Positions 20,457 through 41,939 of a stretch of 64,000 bases of DNA are shown here, one piece after another. The notes beneath the pieces are model-generated. The model worked only from the letters and a program-made list of their open reading frames with translations, made no database searches and was not told the origin of the DNA. This DNA comes from a virus (taxonomy: Duplodnaviria > Caudoviricetes). The position numbers were made by a program, and so were the translations under genes. The DNA lies in IMG/VR virus record IMGVR_UViG_3300032135_000291, positions 1 to 64,000 of that record; one strand, 5' to 3'. Position 1 is the stretch's first letter. Each line of letters begins with the position of its first letter.

Positions 20457-20527
20457 GGCGCTAAACGATCAAGGCGCCGCGCGGGACTACCACACCTCAA
20501 ATGCACCAAATCTGCTACGATCACTAA

Positions 20528-24474: not shown

Positions 24475-24715
24475 TTGCTCCTTGGTGCGGAACCCGAGAG
24501 TTCGCTCGGCAAGGAGACAGGACGAGTCCAGCCCTGTCGCTCGGGAGGTTCGGCCCCGCTGACGCGCGCGAGGTGATGGCGGTGAGCCGTGGCGTTTGGC
24601 GGATAGAGACCCGCGGCGAGCATCTCGTCGCCCACCGTCCGTAAGGGCAGGGACTGCGAGCGGCACTTTGGTTAAGCGGTCGGCTAGTCGCCGCCAGCGT
24701 CCGACACGAAGCGAG

Positions 24716-24725
24716 CGGATACCTT
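24716..24725 (+). promoter_or_regulatory. Class B promoter motif
   Basis: CGGA-TACCTT-N6-ATG 24732. Confidence 0.7.
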
Positions 24726-24731
24726 GACGCT

Positions 24732-25784
24732 ATGAGCCGTTGCAGCGCCCCAGTCTGGGGGCACAAGACCGACAAGTCGCGAGAGAAGTGTCCCGTGCAC
24801 CGGCTGAGCACGAAGGTCCCCGGGCGCCTTGCCGCGCCGCCGTCACCGCGCGGATCTTCTGGCGGCTCGGTGGACGACTTCCCCGAGCACACGTTCTTGG
24901 ATCCCGGGATGGTGGCCTCGATCGACTACTCCCGCACGACGCGAGGGCGCGACAAGTCGTACTCGCGTGAGTGGAAGGGCCTTCACACCGCGACGAAGGG
25001 GCAGATTCGCCCAGGTCGAATCAACACGGGGTACACGATCGCAAAGGTCGCAGACCTCGCGGGCGTCGTCCGCCTAGGACCGAAGCCCGTGGCGTTTGAC
25101 GCCTGCGACTTCCCGTCCGGGACCATGACAAACACCTACGCGGCTGTGATGTACGAAGCGTGCCGTTTCGCCGACGGGCTGGAAGTTACCGCCCCCGGCT
25201 CAGAGATCAACCGTTGCGTGGTGATGGGGAAACTGGTGGTCGGCGGAGGCGTGCGAGCGAAAGGGACCTACGTCAGCGGTCGCATATACATCAACGACGT
25301 GAATTCGGCCCTTGACGGTGTCGTCGTTGTCGGGCCCGTCAGTGCCCCGTGTAGCCCCGCCCTCGTGGTGGATTCGTACTCCGCGACGGGGTGGCTTCTT
25401 GGCCCAAACGTCTCTGGATTCAAGGACGGCTACTGTCGCCTCTCCCGTCCGGGGCAGTTGGTCGTCGTGCCGGACCACGAGTTGGACCGTCCGGTCGTAG
25501 AGGTCCCTGACGACGGCACGATCGGCGTGGTCACCGAGTCGGAGTCGTTGACCATGTTTGGCGACGCGTACGCGTCGCCCGTCAAGGAGGCTGCGGAGGT
25601 CGAACGCCGCATGCGGACGTTCTCGTCGCTCCTGGGCCGCCCCAAGGACGACTCTGACGGCCGGTGGCTTGACGGCCGCAACCATGGGGCCTGGACGACG
25701 CTGATCGACCTGGGCGGCATCGATGGCGACGAAGTCAACGAGGAGTCCCTTAGCGTGGCGTTGGCGCTGAGCCCGAACCCGTAA
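24732..25784 (+). CDS. Zn-knuckle / LALxPNP family protein (beta-rich middle)
   Basis: CSAPVWGHKTDKSREKCPVH ... WLDGRNHGAW ... VALALSPNP*. Confidence 0.8.
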   Translation: MSRCSAPVWGHKTDKSREKCPVHRLSTKVPGRLAAPPSPRGSSGGSVDDFPEHTFLDPGMVASIDYSRTTRGRDKSYSREWKGLHTATKGQIRPGRINTGYTIAKVADLAGVVRLGPKPVAFDACDFPSGTMTNTYAAVMYEACRFADGLEVTAPGSEINRCVVMGKLVVGGGVRAKGTYVSGRIYINDVNSALDGVVVVGPVSAPCSPALVVDSYSATGWLLGPNVSGFKDGYCRLSRPGQLVVVPDHELDRPVVEVPDDGTIGVVTESESLTMFGDAYASPVKEAAEVERRMRTFSSLLGRPKDDSDGRWLDGRNHGAWTTLIDLGGIDGDEVNEESLSVALALSPNP

Positions 25785-25807
25785 GGCCGGCATCGCTCGC
25801 CGCCGGC

Positions 25808-25817
25808 TGGATACCAT
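25808..25817 (+). promoter_or_regulatory. Class B promoter motif
   Basis: TGGA-TACCAT-N6-ATG 25824. Confidence 0.75.
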
Positions 25818-25823
25818 CACGAC

Positions 25824-26864
25824 ATGAGCCTCCCGCGGTGCACCGCACCTACCGGTCACCGGACGCATTCGGGAAGGGCGAAGTGCCCGCTCCATAGTCA
25901 CTCTCCGATACAGGGCCCGATCCGTCGCCCAGCGGTGCCGAAGGGCGTGGAAGTACCCGTGAACCAGGAAAGCGCCCTTGAAGCGTTGCTCACGCTGCCT
26001 CCCACGGCCACCCTCGCCGAGACGATGACCGCGTACTACCGGCTGGAGCGCCAGGCGCGCGAGTTCTTCGCGGGCAACGAGAGGACTCGCCTCGACGTAT
26101 TGCGCGTACTCGCAGAGGAGCGCGGCGAGACGATTCGCGCTCGGGTCGCCATCAACAAGAGCGCCGACGAGCCGCTGCTTCGCACCCTCGCGGAGGACCC
26201 CGACCCCGAGGTGCGCAGGGTCGTCGCCCACAACTTCAAGTGCCCGCCCGACGTTCTGGATGCACTCTCGCGCGACGCGGTGAGGGAGGTGCGAAAGTCT
26301 GTCGGGATGTGTCACCGAACGCCACTCCCCGCACTCGAGCGGTTGGTTCGCGACCCCGTGCGGTTCGTTCGAGGCGCGGCCATGACGAATCCTGTGTGGC
26401 CACGAGAGGACCTGGAAAGGCTAGGGGCCGAATTCCGGGAGACGACGGAAGAGGAGGGTCTGGCCGCGAACGTCAACCTCCCACCAGAGATGCTTCGGGA
26501 GATCGCCCTGCGCGCCCCGCGCACCCCCGGCAAGAAGGAGTCGCGCAAGTTCCGTGCCGCGGCGAACCCGTCGACACCGGAGGATGCCCTGCTGGTTTTG
26601 GCGGACACCGGGGACTACAACTCGGGGCTCTTGCGAAACCCCAAGGTGCCGTCCATCGCCGTCCAGCGGATTGCGGAGGGCGGGGACGACCCGCACGTGC
26701 GGAAGCGGGCGCTCGAAGTCCGTGCCGCACGCATCTTCGAGGCCACCGGGGTACAGCCCGACAACGTGGGCGCTCAGGACTACCTCGTCGACACCGAGTG
26801 GTGGACGCTGACGCCGGACTCCCCCGAGGTGACGCTAGCCCTAGCGCTCTCCCCGGACTTGTGA
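25824..26864 (+). CDS. Zn-knuckle / LALxPNP family protein with LRV/HEAT-like repeats
   Basis: CTAPTGHRTHSGRAKCPLH; LAEDPDPEVRRVVAHN repeats; WWTLTPDSPEVTLALALSPDL*. Confidence 0.8.
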   Translation: MSLPRCTAPTGHRTHSGRAKCPLHSHSPIQGPIRRPAVPKGVEVPVNQESALEALLTLPPTATLAETMTAYYRLERQAREFFAGNERTRLDVLRVLAEERGETIRARVAINKSADEPLLRTLAEDPDPEVRRVVAHNFKCPPDVLDALSRDAVREVRKSVGMCHRTPLPALERLVRDPVRFVRGAAMTNPVWPREDLERLGAEFRETTEEEGLAANVNLPPEMLREIALRAPRTPGKKESRKFRAAANPSTPEDALLVLADTGDYNSGLLRNPKVPSIAVQRIAEGGDDPHVRKRALEVRAARIFEATGVQPDNVGAQDYLVDTEWWTLTPDSPEVTLALALSPDL

Positions 26865-26885
26865 GTTCACCCCAAAGCGATTCAT

Positions 26886-26908
26886 CGGCGGGGCTAAAGA
26901 CCCCGCCG
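26886..26908 (+). terminator. GC-rich intergenic hairpin
   Basis: CGGCGGGG-N7-CCCCGCCG; weak U tail. Confidence 0.4.
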
Positions 26909-26936
26909 CTCTCTCGCTAAAGGCTTAGGTAGCGCA

Positions 26937-26946
26937 TGGATACCGT
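26937..26946 (+). promoter_or_regulatory. Class B promoter motif
   Basis: TGGA-TACCGT-N6-ATG 26953. Confidence 0.75.
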
Positions 26947-26952
26947 CCGGTC

Positions 26953-27663
26953 ATGAGCAGCAACCCAATGATTCAGCCCTGCCCCAACGGCGGCAAGTGC
27001 GGCGCACGCACCCACGACGTGACCAAGAACCAGTTCCGTGAGTGCAAGCGGCTGGCCTCCTCGGGTATCAGGTCGATGGCCGGGGCGAGTGCAGCGCCCC
27101 CACCTCCGTCTGCTCCGCACGCCTTTGATGCCGCCGCGTTTGATGAGTCCATGGCGCAGGTGCGCACGCGACTGGCCTCCGCTGAGACTGACGCGCAAGA
27201 GGCAATACGCCGCCGGTTCGTTGGTCACGTAGATGCGCAAATTGCAGTGGCAGAAACCGTGTGCCGTCGCATCGAAAGACTGGACTGGGAACCGGATGGC
27301 GACAATGACGAGATGACTCTGGCGCTGACGTGCGGTTGCAGCGGCGAAGGTGTCGACGCCAGACGCTTCTTGGACGAGCACGACGTCTCGTCAAATATCG
27401 CGCTGGGCGTGCTCGAATCCTCGCGGGAGTGGCGGGAGTTCCCGACGTTCTCCGGATCGTCCCCAGTCAGCGCCGTCGACGACGAGGAAGACGACTACGA
27501 GCAGGTCTGGCGGTGGGACGGCATGGGTAACCACATGGAGGCGTTTGGGTTGAGTGCGAACAACGACGGTGCGCGCGCCTTCCTGCGCGACTACGAGTGG
27601 TGGGATCTCAACTCGGAGTCCCCGGAGGTCGCTCTCGCGAAAACGCTTCATCCGGGCTCGTAG
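26953..27663 (+). CDS. Zn-knuckle (CCHC) family protein with shared C-terminal domain
   Basis: CPNGGKCGARTHDVTKNQFREC; WWDLNSESPEVALAKTLHPGS*. Confidence 0.8.
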   Translation: MSSNPMIQPCPNGGKCGARTHDVTKNQFRECKRLASSGIRSMAGASAAPPPPSAPHAFDAAAFDESMAQVRTRLASAETDAQEAIRRRFVGHVDAQIAVAETVCRRIERLDWEPDGDNDEMTLALTCGCSGEGVDARRFLDEHDVSSNIALGVLESSREWREFPTFSGSSPVSAVDDEEDDYEQVWRWDGMGNHMEAFGLSANNDGARAFLRDYEWWDLNSESPEVALAKTLHPGS

Positions 27664-27667
27664 CGCC

Positions 27668-27677
27668 TGGATACCGT
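27668..27677 (+). promoter_or_regulatory. Class B promoter motif
   Basis: TGGA-TACCGT-N6-ATG 27684. Confidence 0.75.
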
Positions 27678-27683
27678 CAGGGC

Positions 27684-28406
27684 ATGAGCAATCCGATGAT
27701 CCAGCCCTGTCCTAACGGCGGAAAATGTGGCGCACGCACCCACGACGTGTCGAAGGCTCAGTTTCACGAGTGCAAGCGGGCGGCGTTCGGGTTGCCGCCG
27801 ACGGCCGTCTGGGCTTCTGCCCCCGTGCTGCAATCACCCGAGCCCATTGACCCAGTTGGGTCCACCGACTTCGAGGCCGCCATCAAGACTGCGTGCGACG
27901 CCGCGGGGGCGGCCGAGACGGCTTCTTATCACGCCAGGAAGAAGGCCTTCGCGGCGCAAATCGAGGCGGCGGTAGTGGTCGCCCGGGCTACCTGCAAGAG
28001 TCTCGAATCCATGAAGTGGACAGGAGACGATGAGGGCGGACAGTCAACGACGCTGGCCTTGTTCTGTGGGTGTGAGCAGGCTGAATGCGATCCCGAGGAC
28101 GGACTCGATGCTGACGGAGAGTTTCTGAGCGCGCACGGCATCGACTCCTGGAACGCGCAAGGCGCGCTCGACGGCAGGCCCGACAAGGGCGACTTCGAGT
28201 CATTTCACTGGGAGGCGGACCTCAACGAGCCCAGCAAATATGACTACAAGTGGACGCGCGACTTCTTCGACGAGCACGTCACGGCCCTCGGTGTTGACGA
28301 GTCAAATAAGCCCGCTCGTGATTTCCTGCGCGATTATGAGTGGTCGACGCTGACGCCAGAATCGCCAGAGGTGGCCCTAGCGAAGACGCTGCACCCCGAC
28401 GTGTAG
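27684..28406 (+). CDS. Tandem paralog of 26953
   Basis: CPNGGKCGARTHDVSKAQFHEC; WSTLTPESPEVALAKTLHPDV*. Confidence 0.8.
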   Translation: MSNPMIQPCPNGGKCGARTHDVSKAQFHECKRAAFGLPPTAVWASAPVLQSPEPIDPVGSTDFEAAIKTACDAAGAAETASYHARKKAFAAQIEAAVVVARATCKSLESMKWTGDDEGGQSTTLALFCGCEQAECDPEDGLDADGEFLSAHGIDSWNAQGALDGRPDKGDFESFHWEADLNEPSKYDYKWTRDFFDEHVTALGVDESNKPARDFLRDYEWSTLTPESPEVALAKTLHPDV

Positions 28407-28615
28407 TCGGAACAGAACTGACGGGGACTCTCGTCGGCTTTCCTGCGGAAGTCGGGTTTGAGAATTGGGCGCTTGACGGCTTCGTCCACCGCCTGCAACC
28501 TGGCGCCGTGCGCGCTTGCCAAATTGCGCACATTGCTGGGGCCACGTAGCGGAGTCACTATGCTTCCCGTAGACCGCAACAGGTTTTATTGCCGAGCAGT
28601 ATTCACGAGGGAGAC

Positions 28616-28948
28616 ATGCCTGTGTCACGACAGATAGTCGTCATTCTTAAAGACGATGTTGACGGGGGAGACGGAGACGAAACTGTCAATTTCGCGCTGG
28701 ATGGCGTCACCTACGAGATTGACCTTTCAACGCAGAACGCGGACGCACTAAGGGCGGCGATGGAGCCCTGGATTTCTGCGGGCCGTCGCGTCCGCTCGAA
28801 GCGGTCAGAGTCCGCGGGCGGGACAACCCGGTCGGCCAAGCGCGATTCCACCCGGATCAGAACGTGGGCGGCGGCCCACGGCTACGAGGTCGGCGAACGC
28901 GGGCGCATCCCCGGGGACGTCGAGAAGGCGTACTTCGACAGCCTGTGA
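28616..28948 (+). CDS. lsr2: Lsr2 nucleoid-associated protein
   Basis: DDVDG..DETVNFALDGVTYEIDLS..NADALR; IRTWA..GYEVGERGRIP. Confidence 0.95.
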   Translation: MPVSRQIVVILKDDVDGGDGDETVNFALDGVTYEIDLSTQNADALRAAMEPWISAGRRVRSKRSESAGGTTRSAKRDSTRIRTWAAAHGYEVGERGRIPGDVEKAYFDSL

Positions 28949-28956
28949 CCTTGGCG

Positions 28957-28966
28957 TGGATACCGT
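28957..28966 (+). promoter_or_regulatory. Class B promoter motif
   Basis: TGGA-TACCGT-N6-ATG 28973. Confidence 0.75.
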
Positions 28967-28972
28967 ACGGGT

Positions 28973-29833
28973 ATGAAGTGTTCAGCGCCCGTGGAGGGGC
29001 ACACCAGTCGGTCGGAAGAGTTGAAGTGTCCGGCGCACGGCAAGAGCGACCCCGCGCGGCGCTCTGCTCGTGCACCTTCCGCGCCGACCAGTCCTGACGG
29101 CGCATACCCCAACGCGGACGTCACGGCCAAGGCGTCCGCCAATGGCGCCGCCACTCGGGGGCTACGAGTGTCCGGCACGCTGACCGCAGCACACAACTCC
29201 GTCGTCGAGGACTGCGTTGCTGGCGCCATCACCGTGAATACCGGCGCCACCTTGACGGACTGCCACGCCATCGAGAGCGGCCAGCAGGAAGACCGCCCGC
29301 CAAACGCCTTCATCGAGGGGTACTGCAGCGACATCTCAATGACCAACTGCACTGCGCAGGGCATCAAGTTGCAGATCAGGAACTCGTCGATCGTCGACTG
29401 CCACGCACGAGGCAACTTCGCGATGGAGAGTGCGGTGGAGAGCGAGGTCGTTGGGTGCACGTCAGATCGCATGATCGTGCTGGACGACGGATACAAGACT
29501 CGGGTCGTCATCACGGAGCCCGGGCAGATTTTCGTGTCTCCTAGATCCAACTTGGAGTGCGCCGTCGAGTGCCCGATAGACCTCACCATCATCCTTCCGT
29601 CCGACCACCCGTGGCATAATCCCAGGAGCGGCGATGACGTGACGTGGATCAACAAGGAGATCGCTCTCCGCCGATCGCTGGTGCTGCGCCCAAAGGACGG
29701 CTCGCACGGTCTTTGGCTGGACGCACGCAATGAGAAAGCCTGGGAGGCTCTTCTCGAGTCCGCCGACCTGGAAGCCTGCTCGGTCGAGGACAGCGCCGTG
29801 TTCGTCGCGTTGGCGCTATACCCGAACCCCTAG
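28973..29833 (+). CDS. Zn-knuckle / LALxPNP family protein (beta-helix-like middle)
   Basis: CSAPVEGHTSRSEELKCPAH ... WLDARNEKAW ... VALALYPNP*. Confidence 0.8.
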   Translation: MKCSAPVEGHTSRSEELKCPAHGKSDPARRSARAPSAPTSPDGAYPNADVTAKASANGAATRGLRVSGTLTAAHNSVVEDCVAGAITVNTGATLTDCHAIESGQQEDRPPNAFIEGYCSDISMTNCTAQGIKLQIRNSSIVDCHARGNFAMESAVESEVVGCTSDRMIVLDDGYKTRVVITEPGQIFVSPRSNLECAVECPIDLTIILPSDHPWHNPRSGDDVTWINKEIALRRSLVLRPKDGSHGLWLDARNEKAWEALLESADLEACSVEDSAVFVALALYPNP

Positions 29834-29856
29834 GCTCGGTCTGGCTCAATCCAACT

Positions 29857-29868
29857 GTGTGGTAGCCT
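29857..29868 (+). promoter_or_regulatory. Class A promoter motif (extended -10)
   Basis: GTGTGG-TAGCCT-N7-ATG 29876. Confidence 0.65.
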
Positions 29869-29875
29869 TTAACGC

Positions 29876-30550
29876 ATGGGAGCCACATTGGGTATCGGTA
29901 TCGCAATCCTTTTGTGGTCGGCCGCGGCGGCGCTGTCCCTTCCACAGACGGTCGCGGCCACTCACTTTCTTGCACGCTCCCCGGTCACCCTGGTCCACGA
30001 GTTCTCGCACGTCGTAGCGGCAACGCTCACTGGCGGCTTCTCGTGGAGTCTGCGCCTCTCGGGCGCCGGGGGAGCGCGGGTACGAAGCGTTCACCTCACA
30101 CTCGCCTCGCACCTGGTCACGCCCCTCGCCGGCTATCTGGGACCGCCCCTCGTTGGCGCGATGGTCGTGGTGCTAGACGTCAAGATGAATGGCGCCATGT
30201 GGGACTCCGCCCCGGTGCTCCTGTTCGGAATCGTCGGTGTCTCCTGTCTGCTGCTGTCGAGGGACTGGCGCGCACTCCTCGCCTCCGCGTGGCTCCTGGC
30301 ACTGGTCGGGGTGCTCATGCAGACCGGGTGGACGCTTCTCGCGCCAATCGGTCTGGCGTTGTGCTTGGTAGGGACCGTCGACACCATCCGGCTCGTCATC
30401 CTGCATTCACGTTTCGGTTCCGACATGCCCAGCGACGCGGTTGACGCCGGCCGAGGGGTCGTGCCACCCGTGGCGATCGCGGTCCTGTGGGCCACGGTCG
30501 CCATCGCGTGCACCGTCGCTGCCGTGCTCGTCATCGCGCGGGTCTTGTGA
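29876..30550 (+). CDS. M50B-like membrane metallopeptidase
   Basis: LVHEFSHVVAATLTGG (HExxH), LAGYLGPPLVG, late SDA; multiple TM helices. Confidence 0.85.
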   Translation: MGATLGIGIAILLWSAAAALSLPQTVAATHFLARSPVTLVHEFSHVVAATLTGGFSWSLRLSGAGGARVRSVHLTLASHLVTPLAGYLGPPLVGAMVVVLDVKMNGAMWDSAPVLLFGIVGVSCLLLSRDWRALLASAWLLALVGVLMQTGWTLLAPIGLALCLVGTVDTIRLVILHSRFGSDMPSDAVDAGRGVVPPVAIAVLWATVAIACTVAAVLVIARVL

Positions 30551-30582
30551 CTCCGTGTTGGACACCATTAGCGCCCTCAAAA

Positions 30583-30594
30583 GTGTGGTAGTTT
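30583..30594 (+). promoter_or_regulatory. Class A promoter motif
   Basis: AAAA-GTGTGG-TAGTTT upstream of the MTase-sigma-topoisomerase run. Confidence 0.65.
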
Positions 30595-30628
30595 TCGCAC
30601 GGGCATATTGAAACATCAAGGGAGAGAA

Positions 30629-31639
30629 GTGAGCGTAGCGGACGAAGCAGGGCAAGCGCTGAGCCCTGCATTTAGCGACGCCTACGCCACGGTGTACCAG
30701 GGCGACTGCGAAAGCGTTCTCCCTCAACTTCCCGCCGAATCGGCGGACTCAATAGTCACCGATTCGCCCTACGGCCTGACGATGATCGACGAGGCCAAGA
30801 CCCGAGCCGCACTCGACCAGTGGCTGTCTGGCAACGACTCGTTCGTTCCTGATGGCGCCGGTTTCATGAGCAACGAGTGGGACCGTTTCGTGCCCCCGCC
30901 GGCCACGTGGAGAGCAGCAGCCCGCGTCCTCAAGCCGGGCGGTTACGTGCTGTGCTTCGCCGGGTCGCGCACCGTGGACCTGATGATGCTGAGCCTGCGC
31001 CTCGCGGGCCTTCACATCGCAGGGACGACCGAGTGGGTCTACGGCACGGGCATGCCCAAGGCGTCCGACGTGTCCCGCACGATCGATAGACACCTCGGTC
31101 ACGAAGGTGAGGTCGTTGGGTCGCGTCTGGTGGACACCAGCATCCGCAACCAGAACCTGCACTCCGGCTCCCGCACCGCGATGATGGTCACCCAGGACGT
31201 GCGCTCACTCAGCGCCCTCGCCCAGCCGTGGGAGGGCTGGTATCCAAACCTCAAACCCGCCCACGAGCCGGTCATCATCGCGCAGAAGCCGCGCGAAGAC
31301 GGAAGCGTGGACTCACGCAAGGTACCGCCCTTCCGCTACATCGCCAAGGCCAGCACGTCAGAGCGGCCCGCCTACTTCGACGAAGAGGGCAACGAGGTCT
31401 CGCACAACACAGTGAAGCCCGTGGCTGTGATGAAGTGGCTCGTCTCGCTGGTCACGCCCGTGGGCGGCACGGTGCTCGATCCGTTCGTCGGCTCGGGCAC
31501 GACATGCGAGGCTGCAACGCTCGTCGGTGTCGACTCCATTGGAATCGAGTTGGACGCCAAGCACATCCCTCTGGTGGTGGCCCGCATGACCAGCAAGGAC
31601 CTCTGGGGCGGCTCGCTCTTCGACTGGAACATGCAATGA
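30629..31639 (+). CDS. Beta-class N6/N4 DNA methyltransferase
   Basis: Motif IV VTDSPYG at the N-terminus, motif I VLDPFVGSGTT at the C-terminus, HNTVKP. Confidence 0.9.
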   Translation: MSVADEAGQALSPAFSDAYATVYQGDCESVLPQLPAESADSIVTDSPYGLTMIDEAKTRAALDQWLSGNDSFVPDGAGFMSNEWDRFVPPPATWRAAARVLKPGGYVLCFAGSRTVDLMMLSLRLAGLHIAGTTEWVYGTGMPKASDVSRTIDRHLGHEGEVVGSRLVDTSIRNQNLHSGSRTAMMVTQDVRSLSALAQPWEGWYPNLKPAHEPVIIAQKPREDGSVDSRKVPPFRYIAKASTSERPAYFDEEGNEVSHNTVKPVAVMKWLVSLVTPVGGTVLDPFVGSGTTCEAATLVGVDSIGIELDAKHIPLVVARMTSKDLWGGSLFDWNMQ

Positions 31640-32409: not shown

Positions 32410-32431
32410 GGAAACACCTACAAGGAGCGCG

Positions 32432-33400: not shown

Positions 33401-33432
33401 GACGTTCGCGGGGACCAAGAGAGGCTGCACCC

Positions 33433-35448
33433 ATGACGAATTATGGAGCCGATGACATCATCGCGCTTGAGGGGCTCGAAGCGGTCTATCGTCGTCCCGC
33501 AATGTATGTCGGCACCACAGATAAGCGCGGCTTTCACCACCTGCTGTGGGAGATCGTCGATAACTCCGTAGACGAGGCAATGGGCGGTCACGCCAACCGC
33601 ATCACCGTGACGATTCACGAGGACGAGTCCGTCACCGTGACGGACAACGGCCGCGGCATCCCCGTCGCGAAGCAGACCCATGGGTCATACAAGGGCATGT
33701 CGACCCTCGAAATGGTCATGACGGTGCTGCACGCTGGCGGCAAGTTCGAGGGCAAGGGCTATCAGTTCTCCGGCGGCCTGCACGGCGTCGGCGTGTCCGT
33801 CGTCAACGCGCTGTCGACCCGCGTCGAAGTGCAGGTGCGCAGAGACGGCCAAATCCACTCGATGGCCTTCGCCGGCAAGAAGAAGAAGGTCCGCGGACAG
33901 ACCGAGTCGTTCATCCCAGGGCTCGTCGACGAGCCGCTCAAAGTCATCGGCACCACCAAGACGAAGGCCGAGACGGGCACCCAGACGAGGTTCTGGCCGA
34001 ACCTGGACATCTTCACGTGCGACACGTGGGACTCCAAGTTGGTCCTCGCGCACATGCGCCGCAGCGCCTTCCTGAACCCAGGTCTCACGTTCGTGTTCTC
34101 GGACGAGCGCCACAGCGACGCACCCGTCGAGTTCTGCTACCCCAACGGCCTGGCCGACTTCATGGCAGAAGAGGCCGCGGAGCGCATCGCAGACGACGAG
34201 GAAGCGTCGATCGACAACGTCCACCCGAAGGACGCAATCGTCCTCAGCGGGGCTGCGGAAGACGGCACGGGACAGTGGGACCTGGCGATGCTGTGGTTCC
34301 CTGACGAGCGCTACGTCATCCACTCGTTTGCCAACGGCGTGAACACGCCCAACGGTGGCGCACACGTCAAGGGCCTCGAAGAGGCCATGACCGCGTCGCT
34401 GAACAAGTACGCCCACCAGGACCACATCGCACTGCTGGGGGAGAAGGACCAGAACCTCGCCGCGTCCGACTGGCGCTCCGGCTGCGGCTACGTGATTGCC
34501 GCGAAGGTGCGCGAGCCGCAGTTCGTCGGCCAGACCAAAGAGGAACTGTCCAACCCCGAGATCAAGGCGATGGTGAAGAGCCAATTCTCTGTGCAGTTCG
34601 CGCAGTGGCTTGATGCCCACCCGGCCGAGGCGAAGAACCTCGTCGAGCGCTTCGTGCAGCAGATGCGGTTCCGCATCAAGATGGCTGACTTCGCCAAGTC
34701 CGAGAAGTCCAAGGGCAAGCAGGGCTTCCAGGCCGCCAAGTTGCCGCTGCCGGCCAAACTGGCTGACTGCTCGCGCCACACCGGCGCCGAACTGTTCATC
34801 GTCGAGGGTGACTCCGCTGCCGGTCCAGCCATCAAGGCCCGCAACTCGGGCTTCCAGGCGGTCCTGCCGGTAAGAGGCAAGGGCCTCAACATCGAGCGGG
34901 CACTCAACGGACGTGACGCCGAGTCGAAGATCTCCGACAACCGAGAGGTCCAGGGGATCATCGCCGCCATCGGCGCCGGCTCGCAGGACATGTTCGACCC
35001 GTCGAAGATGCGCTACGACAAGATCGTCATGCTGATGGACGCGGACCCTGACGGTCGGCACATCGCCATCCTGCTGATGACCCTGTTCTACCGACTGATG
35101 CCGCAACTGGTGGAGGACGGTCACCTGTATGTGGCACGGCCGCCGCTGTTCGGAACCAGGCAGAAGGACAAGAAGGTCTACCTGTCGAGCGAGGCTGAAC
35201 GCGACGCCTTCCTCGCAGCGAACCCTCGTCACGCGGATCCGATGCTCCGATTCAAGGGTCTCGGTGAGATGAACTTCCGCGAACTCGGGGAGACCACGAT
35301 CGAGCCCTCGACCCGTTCACTGGGGCGGCTCGTCATCGAAGACGCTCTGCAGGCCGACGCAACGCTCCGAAGCCTCATGGGCTCCAACTCGGCGACCAAG
35401 TGGGACGTCCTGAAAGATGCAGTGTTCGACGAGGAGGATGTCGCATGA
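33433..35448 (+). CDS. gyrB: Type IIA topoisomerase subunit B (GyrB/ParE family)
   Basis: EIVDNSVDE, DNGRGIP, SGGLHGVG, IVEGDSA, PVRGK, MDADPDG, RFKGLGEM; gyrase versus topo IV not resolved. Confidence 0.95.
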   Translation: MTNYGADDIIALEGLEAVYRRPAMYVGTTDKRGFHHLLWEIVDNSVDEAMGGHANRITVTIHEDESVTVTDNGRGIPVAKQTHGSYKGMSTLEMVMTVLHAGGKFEGKGYQFSGGLHGVGVSVVNALSTRVEVQVRRDGQIHSMAFAGKKKKVRGQTESFIPGLVDEPLKVIGTTKTKAETGTQTRFWPNLDIFTCDTWDSKLVLAHMRRSAFLNPGLTFVFSDERHSDAPVEFCYPNGLADFMAEEAAERIADDEEASIDNVHPKDAIVLSGAAEDGTGQWDLAMLWFPDERYVIHSFANGVNTPNGGAHVKGLEEAMTASLNKYAHQDHIALLGEKDQNLAASDWRSGCGYVIAAKVREPQFVGQTKEELSNPEIKAMVKSQFSVQFAQWLDAHPAEAKNLVERFVQQMRFRIKMADFAKSEKSKGKQGFQAAKLPLPAKLADCSRHTGAELFIVEGDSAAGPAIKARNSGFQAVLPVRGKGLNIERALNGRDAESKISDNREVQGIIAAIGAGSQDMFDPSKMRYDKIVMLMDADPDGRHIAILLMTLFYRLMPQLVEDGHLYVARPPLFGTRQKDKKVYLSSEAERDAFLAANPRHADPMLRFKGLGEMNFRELGETTIEPSTRSLGRLVIEDALQADATLRSLMGSNSATKWDVLKDAVFDEEDVA

Positions 35449-37937
35449 GCCCGCAGAAGGCACCAGTCAGCACGGCACTTGCGGCAGAGGACGTCGACTT
35501 CTCGGTCGAAGCCACCAACGCCTTCGTCGAGTTCGGTTCGTACTCCAACTCGCGAGCCATCCCGGACGTGCGTGACGGGCTCAAAATGGGTGGCCGCCGC
35601 ACCATTTGGGCCTTCTACAAGGCGAACGCCGTTCCCGGCAAGCCGACACGTAAGGCGGCACTCCTCGTCGGTCAGGTCATGGCGTGGCACCCGCACGGTG
35701 ACGCGGGCATCTACGACGGCGTCGTCACGATGACGCACGTGCCGTCCGATGGTCCGCCCATCCGCAAGTTGGTGCCGCTGGTCTACGGGCAGGGCGGTTG
35801 GGGCGACATCGACAACGGTGCTTCCCAGCCGCGTTACACGGAGGCGCGACTGAACGACGAGTCCATGCTGCTGCTCGGGCTGTCCGAGTCCGTGCTGGGC
35901 GCCGGAGAGGCCGCCGAGGTCGCCGAGAACGGCGTCCGCCTGGTGAAGAACTACTCAGGCGAACTGGACGAGCCGACCGTGATGCCCGCGTTGTGGCCGC
36001 AGTTCGTCATCAACGGCGTGGAAGGCATCGGTGCGGGCGTCTCCACGTTCACCCCCGGCCACCACCCTGTAGAGGCACTCGACTTGGCGTTGTCGCTCGT
36101 GGATACGGACAACCCGCGCTGGGCGACCATTCAGAAGTTGATGCCGGGCCCCGACCTGCCCGCCGACTGCGACATCTACGACATCGACGGCGGCATTGAG
36201 TCCTACATGACGACCGGCAAGGGCCAGTTCGTGCAGCGCGCCCGCTACGAGGTCATCCCCACGGAGGGCAAGGGCAACAAGGGCAGCACCATGGTTGTCA
36301 CCGGCTTCCCGTTCCGCGTCTCTCCCGCCATGGTCATTGAGGGCATCAACGATCAGATCGCGTCCGAAGACCTCCCTCCGATGTCGATGCGCAACCTGTC
36401 CGACGGTGACGGCTTCCGCCTCGAAATCGACCTTGGCAACGGCGACACCGAGGCGATCATTCAGCGGCTGCTGTACCTGGGACGCAAGGTGCACCTCCAA
36501 GAGACCTTCTCGGTTAACTCGTGGGCGATCGTCGACAACCAGGTCCGTCGCGTGTCCACCGTCGACGCGCTGCGTCACTGGGTGGCTCACCGCCGCACGG
36601 TGATCCGTCGCCGCACAAAGTTCCGTCTCGACAAGGCCGAGGAGCGCCACGAGATCGTCGTCGGCCTGCTCAAGGCAGTGCCGATCGCTCACCTCATCGT
36701 TGAGGTCGTCCGGTCCAGCGCGAACCGCGCCGAAGCGGCCGTCGAGATGACTAAGCAGTGGGGCTTCACGGAGCGCCAGAACCAGGCCATCCTCGACATG
36801 AACGTCGGGCAACTGGCCCGCATCGGTGTGGAGCGCTACGAGAACGAGAAGATCTACCTCGAAGCGCGTATCGCCGACTGCAAGGAAATCCTCGGAGACC
36901 CCAAGGCGCTGTCTGCCCGCCTCAAGGACGAGATCCGTGCGACCAAGAAGCACTTCGCGGGCCACGAGCGACGCTGCCGCCTGATGGAGGGCTGCGCCAA
37001 GGTGGAACGCCCCAAGGTCGCAGTGAGCATGGTGCCTTCCAAGAAGATCTATCTCGCGCACACATCCACCTGGTATTTGCGCCAGGTCGCCAAGCGCAAC
37101 ATCAACCCCATCGTGGGTGTTGACCACGTCGTCGGGTTCCTGGAAACCACGAGCCACGACATGGTCGACGTCGTCACCAACAGGGGCAACCTGACTCGCA
37201 TCAAGGCCGACTCGGTCCCCGACAAGGCGACCCGCGCGGATGCGCTGGTCAAGGTCGAGGTGGGAGAGCGGGCGATCCTGGCGGGGTCAACCGCCGGCGG
37301 CGCTGACGTCATCCTGGTGACCCGCAGCGGCCTTGTGAAGCGAGCCGGTCACGACGACAACTCGGCGATGCGTCCGGGGCGCGCGTACTGCGTCCAGCCG
37401 GTGTCTGACGGCGACGAGGTCGCCTGGGCCTTCCACGCCCGTCCTGGGGCCGATGAGAGGCTCATCGGGATCACAGCGAACGGGTACGTGCTGGCCGTGA
37501 ACGCCGACGACCCTGTGTTCCGTGCGAGGTCACGTACTGCGCGAGGTAACTCGCTCATCAACGTGGTCAGCGGTGACTCACTCGTGTGGGTTGGACTGGT
37601 AGGCGCCAAGGATCGCGTCGTCGCCTGGACCGAAGCCGGCGGCACCTTCGCGCTCAAATCTTCGCAGATGAACACGCTCAACCGCGGTACGAAGGGCACC
37701 CGGGTGTGCCACCACAAGTCGCTGGTCGCCGGAGCCACATCCGGCCCCGGCCGCACGTTGGCCATGTTCAACATCGGAGATGAAGGCGATGCAGCACGCG
37801 AAGTCGACGTGCGGACGCTCACCGAAGGGCCCGAGGTCAAGCGCCCCACTGTCGTCGACGGGATCACCAAGGCTGGCACCGTCATCTGGCTGACAGAAGC
37901 AGGCAGCCTTGCCGAAGACGGTGAGGAAACAGCATGA
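35445..37937 (+). CDS. gyrA: Type IIA topoisomerase subunit A (GyrA/ParC family)
   Basis: RAIPDVRDGLK, WHPHGD, QPRYTEARL catalytic Tyr, PGPDLP, beta-pinwheel-like CTD without a clear GyrA box. Confidence 0.95.
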   Translation: MSPQKAPVSTALAAEDVDFSVEATNAFVEFGSYSNSRAIPDVRDGLKMGGRRTIWAFYKANAVPGKPTRKAALLVGQVMAWHPHGDAGIYDGVVTMTHVPSDGPPIRKLVPLVYGQGGWGDIDNGASQPRYTEARLNDESMLLLGLSESVLGAGEAAEVAENGVRLVKNYSGELDEPTVMPALWPQFVINGVEGIGAGVSTFTPGHHPVEALDLALSLVDTDNPRWATIQKLMPGPDLPADCDIYDIDGGIESYMTTGKGQFVQRARYEVIPTEGKGNKGSTMVVTGFPFRVSPAMVIEGINDQIASEDLPPMSMRNLSDGDGFRLEIDLGNGDTEAIIQRLLYLGRKVHLQETFSVNSWAIVDNQVRRVSTVDALRHWVAHRRTVIRRRTKFRLDKAEERHEIVVGLLKAVPIAHLIVEVVRSSANRAEAAVEMTKQWGFTERQNQAILDMNVGQLARIGVERYENEKIYLEARIADCKEILGDPKALSARLKDEIRATKKHFAGHERRCRLMEGCAKVERPKVAVSMVPSKKIYLAHTSTWYLRQVAKRNINPIVGVDHVVGFLETTSHDMVDVVTNRGNLTRIKADSVPDKATRADALVKVEVGERAILAGSTAGGADVILVTRSGLVKRAGHDDNSAMRPGRAYCVQPVSDGDEVAWAFHARPGADERLIGITANGYVLAVNADDPVFRARSRTARGNSLINVVSGDSLVWVGLVGAKDRVVAWTEAGGTFALKSSQMNTLNRGTKGTRVCHHKSLVAGATSGPGRTLAMFNIGDEGDAAREVDVRTLTEGPEVKRPTVVDGITKAGTVIWLTEAGSLAEDGEETA

Positions 37938-38263
37938 GTGAGTCGACGACGTTCGCAGCGCTATTCCTCCTCGTTCTCGCGCACTACGTGGCCAACTCCG
38001 GGATGCAGGCGGGGCAAGTTGCCTATGAGAAGGGCCGGACCCGCGGAGACTCGAACGGCCCCCGGGGGCTTGTCGCGCACGCGTGCATTCACGGGGCCAC
38101 AGTTACTGCGGCACTAATGGCCGTGGGTCTTCCGTGGCTTGTCCCTGCGATGACGACCATTGTTGTGTACGGCGTGATCGGTTCCTTCAAGAGCGCACGC
38201 ACTGATTGGGTGCTGCACGCGGGTCGTATCATCTTTGTTTGGCTCTTGGCGCTCAACCTGTGA
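37934..38263 (+). CDS. Small membrane protein, DUF3307-like
   Basis: LAHYVAN..MQ..K..GLVAHACIHG pattern; hydrophobic helices. Confidence 0.55.
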   Translation: MSESTTFAALFLLVLAHYVANSGMQAGQVAYEKGRTRGDSNGPRGLVAHACIHGATVTAALMAVGLPWLVPAMTTIVVYGVIGSFKSARTDWVLHAGRIIFVWLLALNL

Positions 38264-38384
38264 GCCCCAGCAGGGCAAAGAGCACATGGTCGTCTCGAGG
38301 AAGTGCCTGCGGGCGTTGTTCTTCGTGAATCGAGGCACGAACCGCTCCGGGTCGCGCAACCGTCCGTGGACACCAGGTCAGGCC

Positions 38385-38422
38385 CCGTCATCTGGCTGAC
38401 AGACGCAAGCAGCCTTGCCAAA
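38385..38422 (+). repeat. Degenerate copy of the gyrA 3' end
   Basis: CCGTCATCTGGCTGACAGA.GCA.GCAGCCTTGCC.AA matches 37879-37916 with 3 mismatches. Confidence 0.75.
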
Positions 38423-38452
38423 ATCGACGAGGCCGCTTGATGAATGCCCGGG

Positions 38453-38831
38453 TGGACACCTTCACCAAAATGCCGCCAGGAAGCCCCGTCCGTAAGGGCG
38501 GGGAGGATGTCAATATGCGGACTTTGAAGGCGGGGAGTACCCCGTCATGCAGGGCTCGCCGAGCCACCGCGACTCCGGGGCGACGCACCCACTGAACCCA
38601 CTGCACCCGGAAGAGCGCGCCGTGCGCAGGGAGTTGTGTCGCCGCAAGAGCGATGACTCCGAGGGCCGGTATCTCCACCCGCACAATCAGGCAGCGTGGA
38701 GTGCACTGCTCGAGGGCGGGTACATCGAGCGGCACGAGGTGTTCTCCGACGATGGCTACGAGGATGGCGAAACGCACTCGTTGGACGACTCGCACCTGAT
38801 GCTGGTCCTGGCCCTCTACCCGAACCCGTAG
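38453..38831 (+). pseudogene. Decayed LALxPNP family member (ORF 38547-38831)
   Basis: Mutated class B motif TGGA-CACCTT, ATG 38470 followed by an early stop, no knuckle; remnant ends LVLALYPNP*. Confidence 0.55.
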
Positions 38832-38841
38832 GGCCGCCGAA

Positions 38842-40194
38842 CTACTTGGCTGCGGCCTCTGCTGGCGTCGCTGCATCACGAGCGATACGGCGGATCTCTG
38901 GTGGCACAAACGCGGGGATGGCCACCGTGCGGTCGATGAGACCGTCCTGCATGGCCTTGGCTCCCACTGTCGCGAGTCGGCCGAGCGCTTTGGAGAGTCC
39001 CGCACGGTCTGCCTCGGTAGGGGCGGCACAGGCGAAAGCCCAGCCTCCCACGTAGCAGTCCAGCGAGAACGTGCCCTTGTCGTCGAGTGCGCGGTCGGCC
39101 AGGCGCGTGAGCACCTGTGCGGCCTGGTCGTGACGCAGGTCTGGATCCCAAGGGGAGCCCGCTTCTGCGATCACCGCGTCCAGATCAGTGGCCTTTGCGA
39201 GTTCACGCGGATCCGCTGCGCGAACCCACGAGATCACGCTCGTCTCCGACGTGTTGTCGGCCCGCTGAGCGAGAGCGACCGCAGCGATATCCGCCCAATG
39301 CGGGCCGAGCAGCGCCCGACACACCTCGACGATGTAGTGCTGCGTGACATAGTCCGGCGAGTCCGCGAAGACGTCTTCGATCAACTCGGTCATCCGAGCC
39401 ATTTCCGTCACGGCACGCTCGGTGTGTTCGAGCATGTCCCACGGCACGAGTGTGCCCGGCGTCCACCGGTTATCCACGGCACGGAATACCTTGTCGGGGT
39501 CCTGGTCAAACATCCGGTTCACGAGGCGGACAGTGGACTCGCGCGGCGGCGTGGTGGCGCCAGCAAAGCCGGTAGACCACTCGTCGACGAACAGTTTGCG
39601 GTCGCCGAACCAGGCGACGTGCCCGCCGCGGTTCAGGACGGCTTCGTTGAGGGGGATGACGCTCGATACAGCGCCCTCGGGGTTTGCGGCCATGACGATC
39701 GAGATGTGCTTGGAAATATCAGCGTCCTCGAACTTGCCGTGGGTGAGCAGACCCAGCATCGCGTTCTGCTGGCTGGGCATACAGGTAGTCAGTTCGTCCA
39801 CGAAGAGAATCGTCAGGCCGTTCGCTTCCTCGGCGTGCCGCATCACTTGCTCGGCGACGCGAGGGATGGAGCGCTGCATGACGGTCTTGTCGCCCTCGCG
39901 GGAGGTGTACATCATGCCGTGGATGATCGTCGGGTCCTGCGTCGACGGTTGCAGCGTGATGACCTGGTACGGGACATCGTTGTTGTCGCGCTCGCGGCCG
40001 AGTGCCTCGATGGTGCGCGTCTTGCGGGCGCCCACAGGTCCCCAAAGCGTCACGGGGGTGCGGTTGGCCAGGAAGAGACGGAGCAGGTCTACAGCCACCC
40101 TGCGGGGGTTGTGGACGAGTTCCGCGGCGCTGGTGGCGTTGGTGCCCCAGAGCCGCTCCGTGGCGGCTAGCGGCAGGAAGGACGGGTCAGGCAC
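38842..40194 (-). CDS. MoxR-like AAA+ ATPase with variant Walker A
   Basis: GPVGARKT, LFVDELTT, VMAANP, NRGGH; SD GAGGA before GTG. Confidence 0.8.
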   Translation of the reverse strand: MPDPSFLPLAATERLWGTNATSAAELVHNPRRVAVDLLRLFLANRTPVTLWGPVGARKTRTIEALGRERDNNDVPYQVITLQPSTQDPTIIHGMMYTSREGDKTVMQRSIPRVAEQVMRHAEEANGLTILFVDELTTCMPSQQNAMLGLLTHGKFEDADISKHISIVMAANPEGAVSSVIPLNEAVLNRGGHVAWFGDRKLFVDEWSTGFAGATTPPRESTVRLVNRMFDQDPDKVFRAVDNRWTPGTLVPWDMLEHTERAVTEMARMTELIEDVFADSPDYVTQHYIVEVCRALLGPHWADIAAVALAQRADNTSETSVISWVRAADPRELAKATDLDAVIAEAGSPWDPDLRHDQAAQVLTRLADRALDDKGTFSLDCYVGGWAFACAAPTEADRAGLSKALGRLATVGAKAMQDGLIDRTVAIPAFVPPEIRRIARDAATPAEAAAK

Positions 40195-40849
40195 GCTGTC
40201 CTCGGAAGGACTCGCCGTCGAACGAAGCGATGGTGGATGAGTCGCGGATGCGGTCCCAGCCGCTGTCGCCAACGATGTCTTGTAGGCCGATGCCGTCGCG
40301 ATTGCCGCGAAGAGCCATGTTGCTGGTGATGATCGTGATCCGATCGTTGGCCCACCGGGAGTCGATGAGACTCCACAGGCTACGGCGTTGGTGGTCAGAC
40401 ATCCCGTCGTTCATCGCGCCGAGGTCGTCGATCACCAGGATGGGCGCCGCGCAAAGGTCTTCGAGCACTTCCGCTGCGCTGCGGCCTTCCCAGCCGAACG
40501 AGAACTGGGTGAGCATGCCGGTCGCCGCAACGAAGCGTGCGGACAGGTGGTGAGTCTTGATGAGTTCGGTCACCAGCGCACACGCGGCGGTCGACTTTCC
40601 TGTGCCCGTAGGACCCGTCAAGACGAGGAACTTGGTGGGAGCCTCCAAGTAGCGGGAGAGCGTGAGCGCGTCCCCTCGACCGAGGGCGCCCGACCAGTTG
40701 GAGCCGTTGGTCAGCGTCTCAACGCCGAACGCGCGGTATTGCCCTGGTGTTTGGCGCGCAAACTGCTCAAGCGCGTGCTCAATAACTTCGTCAGCGGCCT
40801 CGGCCTGACGTTGGGCCAGTCGGTCGAGTCTGCGGGTCGGGGTAATCAT
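40187..40849 (-). CDS. DnaC/IstB-like ATPase (helicase loader)
   Basis: GPTGTGKS, LVIDDLG, IDSRW, IITSN; leaderless TAGTCT-N6-ATG. Confidence 0.9.
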   Translation of the reverse strand: MITPTRRLDRLAQRQAEAADEVIEHALEQFARQTPGQYRAFGVETLTNGSNWSGALGRGDALTLSRYLEAPTKFLVLTGPTGTGKSTAACALVTELIKTHHLSARFVAATGMLTQFSFGWEGRSAAEVLEDLCAAPILVIDDLGAMNDGMSDHQRRSLWSLIDSRWANDRITIITSNMALRGNRDGIGLQDIVGDSGWDRIRDSSTIASFDGESFRGQRA

Positions 40850-40855
40850 GCGGGA

Positions 40856-40867
40856 AGACTACCACAC
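40856..40867 (-). promoter_or_regulatory. Class A promoter motif
   Basis: GTGTGG-TAGTCT-N6-ATG 40849. Confidence 0.7.
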
Positions 40868-40898
40868 AATTGCGATCGCTCATCCGCTATGCGCCGCC

Positions 40899-40908
40899 TG
40901 GATACTCT
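40899..40908 (+). promoter_or_regulatory. Class B promoter motif
   Basis: TGGA-TACTCT-N6-GTG 40915. Confidence 0.75.
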
Positions 40909-40914
40909 GTAACC

Positions 40915-41874
40915 GTGAGCGAGTGCACAGCGAAGTCCGGGCAGCACGTCTCCGAGCGCGCGGCGCAGAAATGTCCCGTGCACAAGGTCCGTGACGGAAG
41001 TGCACCAATGTCTCCGGCCCGCGCCGCGGGGCTCGCCAGGGCGAAGGCCGCACCGCCCGCCTTCGCCGGGCCGCTCAACTTGCCTCAGAACAGCGCGTCG
41101 TCATCCTCTCTGGTCCCCCTCAAAGGGTTCCACAACGTCGGGTTCCGGCTCGAAGCCAAGCACCGGGCCGTGTTTCGTCCAGGGACGTCATTCGGTGGCT
41201 GCACCTTCGAGGACGGCCTTGGCCGTTCAGATGACGGATCCGCCGACAAACACGCTGCATTGGCGCTCATCGACTGCGAGGTCTACGGCGACTCTCACCT
41301 GGGCACCGGGTCGCACATCCTCGACAGCACCGTGCATGGCTCCTTGTCTCTCGACAACGCACGCGCAGAGCGCTGCACAATCGAAGGGTCGGCGGAGGTC
41401 CACTTCGGTGCCGAGTTGGTCGACTGCGAGGCCAAGCACGTGGGCGTGGACACTGGGGCGACGGCATCTTTCACGAAGCCGGTGGGCGTAGGGTCCGGGC
41501 CGCAGGTGCACATCAACACGGGCCTCTGGGGGCAAACGCCTGCGAAGATCCACCTCGCGGCCGGCGGCGTCATCCACGCCTCCCCGGAGGACGTAGAGGT
41601 GACAGGTGCTCTCGACTTCGTTGTGCTGGTCGAGCCGCCGAGCAAGGTCGCAGAAGATAGCGCCGTGTGGAGGTCGAACGAGAACATCGCCAGGGCGCGT
41701 TACGCGACGGCCGTGGCGACCGATCGCTCCGACCCCTTGTGGCTTTCGACCCAGAATACCGACGCGTGGCAGATGATCTTCGATGGCGGATACGTGGACG
41801 CAACGGACTCCGACCCGCAGCCCGTACCGGAAGAAGTCCGGTCGTGGGTGCTCGCGCTGTACCCCAATCCGTAG
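40915..41874 (+). CDS. Zn-knuckle / LALxPNP family protein (beta-helix-like middle)
   Basis: CTAKSGQHVSERAAQKCPVH ... WLSTQNTDAW ... WVLALYPNP*. Confidence 0.8.
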   Translation: MSECTAKSGQHVSERAAQKCPVHKVRDGSAPMSPARAAGLARAKAAPPAFAGPLNLPQNSASSSSLVPLKGFHNVGFRLEAKHRAVFRPGTSFGGCTFEDGLGRSDDGSADKHAALALIDCEVYGDSHLGTGSHILDSTVHGSLSLDNARAERCTIEGSAEVHFGAELVDCEAKHVGVDTGATASFTKPVGVGSGPQVHINTGLWGQTPAKIHLAAGGVIHASPEDVEVTGALDFVVLVEPPSKVAEDSAVWRSNENIARARYATAVATDRSDPLWLSTQNTDAWQMIFDGGYVDATDSDPQPVPEEVRSWVLALYPNP

Positions 41875-41893
41875 CGTCTAACCCCGGCTAAAG

Positions 41894-41905
41894 GTGTGGT
41901 AGGCT
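41894..41905 (+). promoter_or_regulatory. Class A promoter motif
   Basis: GTGTGG-TAGGCT upstream of dnaB. Confidence 0.65.
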
Positions 41906-41939
41906 TTCGTCTTGCACTCACCTTTGGGAAGTCGGAGAC

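Follow-up and report, generated by a model that had tools for sequence, protein, structure and literature searches.

We analyzed the first 64 kb (64,000 nucleotides; the window) of a single linear contig of 74,915 bp, the IMG/VR virus record IMGVR_UViG_3300032135_000291, and found that nine genes of the contig, eight inside the window and one outside it, encode proteins with a conserved tail of one of two kinds at or near the C-terminus. This tail is predicted to be a previously undescribed small alpha-helical module that closes cytoplasmic solenoid proteins. Its core of ~40 residues reads (G/W)(V/L)xxxNxxAxxxL, a loop, then (D/E)xx(V/L)xLALxL(H/Y/S)PN(P/T), and in the beta-helix subfamily a preceding helix and an RPKDGSxG loop extend it to three helices over ~70 residues. 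The tail is a real module, extremely rare, with neither a name nor a detectable relative; it is also familiar in kind, as a conserved terminal module on the variable repeat proteins of a mobile element. The solenoids are a fast-turning-over accessory family of a large, high-GC element that IMG/VR classes as viral, and most of them bear an N-terminal Cys/His knuckle. We tentatively prefer a combined role, in which the tail would both cap the solenoid and serve as a common docking or assembly module on variable solenoids.

Two kinds of C-terminal tail

Group 1 (genes A, E, F, G and H) has a tail of ~70 amino acids (aa) with three helices, the motif RPKDGSxGxWLDxRNxxAW, a variable acidic loop and the chain end ALALYPNP. 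Hidden Markov models (HMMs) built with one member left out regained the left-out tail from the six-frame translation of the contig at E values of 1e-9 to 1e-19. Group 2 (genes B, C and D and, subterminally, the gene at 3942) has a tail of ~45 aa with the motifs NxxAxDxL, WWxLxPxSPEV and LAxxLxP, and the consensus of B, C and D is GVxxxNxGAxDFLRDYEWWxLTPESPEVxLAxxLxPxx. The nine genes are as follows.

Gene A, 24732..25784, plus strand, 350 aa: N-terminal Cys/His knuckle, linker, beta-helix-type middle and group 1 tail at 25572-25781 (leave-one-out HMM E 3.6e-13).
Gene B, 25824..26864, plus strand, 346 aa: knuckle, LRV/HEAT repeat middle (Pfam LRV 5.7e-11, LRV_2 4.2e-9) and group 2 tail at 26712-26861.
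Gene C, 26953..27663, plus strand, 236 aa: type 2 knuckle, acidic middle (fold not assigned) and group 2 tail at 27511-27660.
Gene D, 27684..28406, plus strand, 240 aa: paralog of C with a group 2 tail at 28254-28403.
Gene E, 28973..29833, plus strand, 286 aa: knuckle, disordered linker, predicted right-handed parallel beta-helix (residues ~50-210) and three-helix group 1 tail at 29621-29830.
Gene F, 38547..38831, plus strand, 94 aa: group 1 tail alone, with neither knuckle nor beta-helix (leave-one-out HMM E 9e-14).
Gene G, 40915..41874, plus strand, 319 aa, GTG start: knuckle, beta-helix-type middle and group 1 tail at 41662-41871; directly 5' of dnaB.
Gene H, contig positions 72599-73567 (L001:8599-9567), minus strand: group 1, C-terminus LAVALYPNP; beyond the window, from the six-frame scan of the whole contig.
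Gene 3942, 3942..4718, plus strand: LRV-repeat protein (Pfam LRV 2e-7) with a knuckle and a subterminal group 2-like tail at 4536-4685 (group 2 HMM E 3e-4), followed by 10 residues.

Among the remaining predicted genes of the contig, none has an end similar to the tail. An earlier note on this stretch, written from the letters alone, had described these ends as one conserved tail domain, and each C-terminus that it quoted is present in the gene to which it was assigned. Similarity within each group is well beyond chance. The tails form two subfamilies, and the link between them rests on profile-profile comparison. Plain HMMs of the group 1 and group 2 tails did not match each other (E ~4), and hhalign with small profiles of 5 and 3 sequences scored 2.7 %. 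With 10 group 1 tails (outside relatives included) against 7 group 2 tails (including those of the 3.4-kb contig L012) the score rose to 74 % (E 2.8e-5, 35 columns). The alignment covers only the last two helices, that is N-x2-A, a loop and then xEVxLALxLxP, and its register is the one in which the note had placed an N-x2-A motif upstream of the chain end in both tail types.

Further support for a link between the groups comes from hybrid tails in a related contig, IMGVR_UViG_3300027271_000063 (hereafter G001; 69.5 kb), which is collinear with ours and shares 29-72 % aa identity along most of it. The LRV protein adjoining the ResIII helicase of G001, the positional orthologue of gene 3942, ends in GVDEDNLEAIDLLL, WWTMSPTSPEV and LLVHPNT, a hybrid of a group 2 body and a group 1-like terminus. 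A 392-aa knuckle-LRV protein of G001 ends in DNTQALDFLL, a long loop and then ENEIKLALLVHPNT, and a short frame ends in AINKEAHALIEAFGG followed by VQAALLVHPNT. With the G001 hybrid tails added, hhalign reached 86 % (E 5.3e-6) over an aligned region of only 35-36 columns. A common origin of the ~40-residue helix-loop-helix core in both tail groups is therefore likely, as judged from sequence profiles.

The group 2 tail was seen only in our contig, in L012 (which holds two orthologues of B, B' and B'', and one of D, D', with 88-90 % aa identity and an omega of 0.23) and in G001. In L012 the gene 5' of the B orthologue (L012:3-317) ends in TPMPTQEQVKAALAARA, which may be a third, degenerate tail variant or a chance likeness.

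Knuckle and tail are associated in the contig: the knuckle is present in 8 of the 9 tail genes versus ~10 of 52 others (Fisher p 1e-4). The tail is also found without the knuckle, in four outside proteins described below (P0009, P0011, P0012 and P0014).

Selection, middles and predicted structure

The constant-variable-constant layout proposed in the note was confirmed by two measures. Mean pairwise identity in group 1 is 37 % in the knuckle, 20 % in the middle and 34 % in the tail, and the proportion of non-synonymous differences (pN) between C and D is 0.05, 0.50 and 0.27 in the same order. The corresponding proportions of synonymous differences (pS) are 0.62, 0.67 and 0.84, saturated throughout, so the ends are held by purifying selection on the protein. 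The note had argued the same, that selection acts on the protein and not on a DNA site, from the synonymous differences between the PNP codons, which we also find (CCG AAC CCG, CCG AAC CCC, CCC AAT CCG and CCC AAC CCG). Recent gene conversion or a DNA site behind the constant ends was rejected, given the saturated pS of C and D and a synonymous divergence (dS) of orthologue tails that is not consistently low. Polar residues are among the invariant ones of the tail (D and S in RPKDGS, N in RNxxAW, and N-P at the chain end).

Across orthologue pairs omega is 0.23-0.35. No region with omega >1 was seen among these pairs, which thus give no sign of diversifying selection or of an effector library in an arms race. 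Gene H differs from its orthologue on another contig (L004:1459-2427) with a dS of 0.27, compared with 0.04-0.09 for three neighboring genes, which points to mosaic replacement in an otherwise close stretch rather than fast point evolution. The H tail has fewer synonymous changes than its middle predicts (5 observed, Poisson p ~0.008); the B and D pairs show the reverse, and no inference was drawn from this deficit.

The middles had been described as unrelated repeat scaffolds. Several scaffold types are indeed present, but not all of the middles are unrelated. Those of A, E, G and H have one right-handed beta-helix in common (blastp E 1e-6 for E against H and 0.004 for G against H), and in the family alignment of group 1 the tail is immediately preceded by a conserved PGQ strand and a YPxxTT strand. 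Group 1 is therefore one full-length family and not a set of unrelated scaffolds. C and D are paralogous over their full length (middles, blastp 2e-13), while B and 3942 are LRV/HEAT repeat proteins whose Pfam LRV matches lie upstream of the tail. As to whether the middles are swappable, the tail occurs on at least three to four scaffold types (beta-helix, LRV/HEAT, the acidic C/D middle and, by eye, the MORN-like repeat of P0014); group 1, on the other hand, consists largely of ordinary, fast-diverging full-length paralogs.

The beta-helix rungs of group 1 (28973-29833 and others) repeat xVxDCxA / xxTNCxA, with 4-11 cysteines per protein. This pattern suggests an internal cysteine ladder, which would fit a cytoplasmic protein.

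An AlphaFold2 model of E, built from 18 family sequences, has a mean predicted local distance difference test score (pLDDT) of 85.8 and a predicted template-modeling score (pTM) of 0.79. In this model the knuckle (residues 1-24) is poorly defined, the linker (25-41) is disordered, the beta-helix spans residues ~50-210, and the tail forms helices at 220-237, 254-263 and 273-282, with block-mean pLDDT values of ~82-97. Structural comparison with VIA aligned E to right-handed parallel beta-helix enzymes (8ja4_A, Z 12.5, root-mean-square deviation 2.8, 157 residues; 7o0y_A, Z 12.5) and to tailspikes (Z 11-12); these alignments span residues ~40-210 and hardly reach the tail. At the level of fold, the modeled E middle is thus a right-handed parallel beta-helix of the pectate-lyase-like kind. 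Foldseek searches with E against PDB and BFVD and a shape search of the Atlas returned only generic beta-helix and pentapeptide rows, at E 0.005 or worse. When F was modeled alone, the same three helices as in the E tail were predicted (mean pLDDT 74.7), and the F model found no fold neighbor by Foldseek against PDB (best E 2.6) or in a wide VIA search (best Z 3.1).

Turnover, putative promoters and rarity of the family

The family genes behave as cassettes that are gained and lost, almost all of them as leaderless units behind a promoter-like motif, and their sites are filled, empty or decayed in related contigs, which are syntenic pieces of elements of this kind. In contig L011 the gene order is GyrA, ThyX, two AAA genes on the minus strand, P0012, DnaB, a WhiB-family gene on the minus strand (Pfam Whib), MoxR and vWA. 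By its position P0012 is thus the orthologue of G; the two share 28 % identity, compared with 54-77 % in the genes on either side. Contig L009 has GyrA (86 %), P0009 and an AAA gene on the minus strand, with P0009, a full-length 268-aa protein of beta-helix and tail, at the site of F. The tail of P0009 is the nearest to that of F (44 %), and both have a long acidic insert. No beta-helix remains were found upstream of F (tblastn finds the tail part only), and the canonical GGATAC motif is not present there. From these comparisons F is most likely a decapitated remnant of the full-length gene at its site. The region upstream of F (38264-38546) contains a GC-rich hairpin, CCCCGTCCGTAAGGGCGGGG, followed by AGGATGTCAA. 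Elsewhere, a family gene lies directly 3' of the FtsK gene in L002 and another upstream of the ArdC-M23 block in L010. Relatives are present in the samples IMG 3300027271 and 3300038660, SRR24762751 and ERZ27294380.

In G001 the F site is empty, A to E are all absent and no group 1 tail occurs anywhere, yet FtsK, MoxR and vWA are retained. The interval from FtsK to the M50B-like gene measures 11.3 kb in the window (18498-29833), where it holds two zinc-ribbon nuclease genes and A to E, versus 3.5 kb with other content in G001 (24872-28332). At the G site of G001, between the gene for a 220-aa AAA partner and dnaB, a tail-core frame (39595-39765) ends in LLVHPNTDR. Its GC content at third codon positions is 0.87-0.90, and it can start only at a GTG codon, for a length of 38 aa; the frame is a remnant or else encodes a mini-protein.

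The motif GGATACYNT-N6-RTG has seven exact matches in the window versus 0.04 expected, and six of the seven stand at start codons of tail genes (A, B, C, D, E and G). The matches, all of them directly at start codons of knuckle genes, are the following.

5368-5385, GGATACYNT-N6-ATG/GTG.
24717-24734, the promoter-like GGATACCTT-N6-ATG of gene A.
25809-25826, GGATACYNT-N6-ATG/GTG.
26938-26955, GGATACYNT-N6-ATG/GTG.
27669-27686, GGATACYNT-N6-ATG/GTG.
28958-28975, GGATACYNT-N6-ATG/GTG.
40900-40917, GGATACYNT-N6-ATG/GTG.

The position of the motif directly at start codons fits leaderless units, and suggests a dedicated leaderless promoter class and separately transcribed genes.

A group 1 tail profile searched against all 1.84 billion representative proteins matched 16 proteins at E <=1e-3. 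Five of these are the five group 1 genes of the contig (their own products or orthologues of ~84 % identity or more), all 16 matches lie at or within ~12 residues of the C-terminus, and the proteins measure 94-389 aa. Seven of the 11 outside proteins have the same kind of N-terminal knuckle, which is absent from P0009, P0011, P0012 and P0014 with start codons taken as called. With the group 2 tail profile, the search recovered no more than the proteins of the window and their L012 relatives; a word-based search with E found only E itself, and the search with profile A4 gave the known set plus P0022 (304 aa) and nothing clearly new. An IMG/VR pattern scan for the ALALYPNP end and Atlas feature searches with the E tail and with D returned no relative and nothing usable, respectively.

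The tail had no match in Pfam, NCBIfam, PHROGs or PADLOC, and gave a best E of 0.63 against PDB sequence profiles and a best feature score of 0.76 in the ESM Atlas; a missing match in these databases does not prove a new fold. Even at E values up to 10, the nine isolated tails matched no Pfam family, LRV (PF01816) included. The beta-helix middles likewise stay below the Pfam cut-offs for pentapeptide repeats: G matches Pentapeptide_3 at E 0.016 (15.8 bits, under the cut-off of 27 bits), P0015 scores E 0.009, also under the cut-off, and A and E have no match. As no defence or anti-defence family was matched in PADLOC, the link to anti-defence proposed in the note finds no support.

Outside the element family the tail occurs in one gene alone, P0014. 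Judged by eye, the P0014 middle is a MORN-like repeat. The gene lies on a 42-kb contig (L008:1-20813, ERZ27297473 k141_879350), where it overlaps the stop of a 389-aa gene lacking assignment and is accompanied by genes for an integrase, GntR, MmeI-type restriction, Fic, GIY-YIG, Metallophos and RNase_H_2 proteins. The setting looks like a defence island. At E 1e-5 the contig has nothing else in common with the genes of the element. Since P0014 combines the tail with another scaffold in an unrelated island, the module moves between scaffolds and elements.

The contig itself is ~29 % complete by CheckV, has a GC content of 65 %, carries nearly all of its genes on the plus strand and encodes 35 tRNAs. 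Pfam matches on it include a ResIII helicase, an ArdC-N protein, an M23 peptidase, an FtsK/SpoIIIE ATPase, two DUF4379 zinc-ribbon arrays with an MTES_1575 nuclease domain, an M50B-like peptidase, an N6/N4 methylase, a sigma-70 factor, GyrB, GyrA, DnaB, DnaG, RecA, MoxR, a vWA/DUF2201 protein, a pentapeptide protein, an SNF2 helicase and a type IV prepilin peptidase. Five of the neighboring genes are located as follows.

10665-13382, 905-aa ATPase-like protein.
15411-18434, FtsK/SpoIIIE-like protein.
29876-30550, M50B-like peptidase.
32432-33400, sigma-70-like gene.
38842-40272, AAA protein.

The element belongs to high-GC bacteria and may be a jumbo phage or a giant plasmid. Models for capsid (PF05065) and terminase (PF03354) matched in neither 70-75-kb fragment, a result of little weight since the fragments are ~26-29 % complete. 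Megablast of 24000-42000 against plasmid and phage collections gave no match, and the papers retrieved on the element type were general ones about tRNA arrays (among them PMC5966550 and PMC12803027), with nothing on this tail family. The type IV prepilin peptidase and RecA lie on the tail of the contig (L001:1943-3319 and L001:88-1557, both minus strand), and a related contig (L007:4660-7706) encodes a PilB-type ATPase, PilM and ThyX; such a mix of prepilin peptidase, PilB and PilM beside FtsK, ArdC and M23 genes is unusual.

Possible roles of the tail and known systems

In the combined role that we prefer, with some reserve, the module would close the C-terminal end of the solenoid and at the same time offer one common protein-protein interface, either for self-association or for docking to a shared, probably host-encoded partner, while the solenoid would supply a lineage-specific surface. 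In view of the P0014 island, which shares no other gene with the element, such a partner could only be host-encoded or very general. The presence of the tail on alpha- and beta-solenoids, its invariant polar residues and the tail-only frames fit a module that is kept beyond its own scaffold.

Several observations weigh against this combined role. Homology within group 1 reaches upstream of the tail via the PGQ strand and the beta-helix, and E is modeled as a single confident unit together with its helices. F alone is not predicted to be a compact known fold, and its helices may need the solenoid for packing, which would favor a mere cap. Either tail-only frame, F or that of G001, may be a dead remnant. 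The link between the groups depends on the few aligned columns of small profiles given above. Finally, omega in orthologue tails is 0.16-0.34, which is not clearly below the whole-protein value in every pair.

A possible, if less probable, explanation is that the tail is a structural cap only, the end of one globular fold in ordinary paralogs, and that the likeness between the subfamilies is weak, old or convergent. Solenoids generally need caps. The note had named this outcome as one that would count against its proposal, and in group 1 the tail is contiguous with the shared beta-helix in the E model (pTM 0.79). The upstream extension of homology, the lack of a compact fold match for F and the failure of plain HMMs to connect the groups also fit a cap. 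Caps are normally scaffold-specific, however, and the same module sits on an LRV alpha-solenoid, a beta-solenoid and other scaffolds. The invariance of polar residues and of the exact chain end N-P, as well as the hybrid tails on the LRV proteins of G001, also argue against a cap alone.

The note had itself favored fixed ends that act as recognition, secretion or processing signals. Such a signal for export, transfer or packaging, read by an ATPase of the element (the FtsK/SpoIIIE-like protein, the 905-aa ATPase-like protein or the MoxR-vWA pair) to deliver a library of solenoid effectors, now appears improbable. C-terminal signal domains are borne by type IV substrates, and the EsxB tail is read by EccC. 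By analogy, a C-terminal module conserved up to the chain end on varied cargo could be such a signal, and the contig has FtsK-family and MoxR/vWA genes, the family gene of L002 comes immediately after FtsK, and the tail is associated with the knuckle. Against this, none of the genes of the element has a homologue in the P0014 island at E 1e-5, and this also partly bears out the other outcome that the note had set against its proposal, a tail outside the element context. Four outside members lack the knuckle, G001 keeps FtsK, MoxR and vWA yet has no group 1 tail, and by inspection the tails have no signal peptide and no recognizable WxG or YxxxD/E motif. The support for a signal is circumstantial, and nothing in the data points to recognition, secretion or processing. 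Still more of a long shot is the specific version in which the tail would be the handle by which the FtsK-like or 905-aa ATPase, or MoxR-vWA, of a jumbo-phage- or plasmid-like actinobacterial element picks a changing solenoid library for delivery into a newly entered cell, with the knuckle as a second key.

A degron or processing site, in which the free C-terminus ALALYPNP-COOH would be read by host Clp or tail-specific proteases, by the adjacent M50B-like peptidase or by the DUF2201 putative metallopeptidase, is very improbable: most members do terminate exactly at N-P, the element has peptidase-like genes and the ALAL stretch loosely resembles ssrA-type ends, but several members have 1-12 extra residues after NP, the tail of 3942 is subterminal, the last residues are modeled as the end of a confident helix and not as a floppy tag, and conservation over 40-70 residues goes far beyond what a degron needs.

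If the tail were a docking handle, it would mark the accessory-protein set of almost unstudied, very large mobile elements with tRNA arrays, and would provide a 40-70-residue reagent for fishing out attachment partners, with F as a natural tail-only version. If it were a delivery handle, high-GC Gram-positives would have a new signal for protein delivery. Were it no more than a cap, the tail would still be a new orphan domain family without a name in current databases, and, with the knuckle and the leaderless promoter motif, would outline a set of co-regulated genes. The value of the family is limited by its extreme rarity (~16-20 sequences known) and the lack of a cultured host.

Among known systems, the XVIPCD (of Xanthomonas type IV substrates), BID domains and the C-terminal domain of type IX substrates are like the tail in being conserved C-terminal modules after variable cargo, with several paralogs per element or genome. 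Searches showed no relation of the tail to them in sequence or fold, their secretion systems are not recognizable in the 75 kb, and the tail also occurs where the machinery of the element is absent.

A second likeness is to the C-terminal helices of the pentapeptide-repeat proteins MfpA and Qnr and to pectate-lyase-like caps, in which helices follow directly after the last rung of a right-handed beta-helix, as in the E model. The weak top Foldseek rows of E are Qnr, MfpA and AlbG (E 0.03 or worse, TM 0.2-0.3), and the VIA rows 6fls and 2w7z extend into the E helices. The group 1 rungs, however, are not pentapeptide repeats by Pfam, and LRV alpha-solenoids bear this tail as well.

The third comparison is with LRV proteins (PF01816/PF25591). 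The tail differs from them in that the isolated tails are without a Pfam match and in that it is carried by non-LRV scaffolds too. B, 3942 and their relatives are themselves LRV proteins, and in them the tail follows the last repeat and is likewise a helix-loop-helix with a Pro-rich turn.

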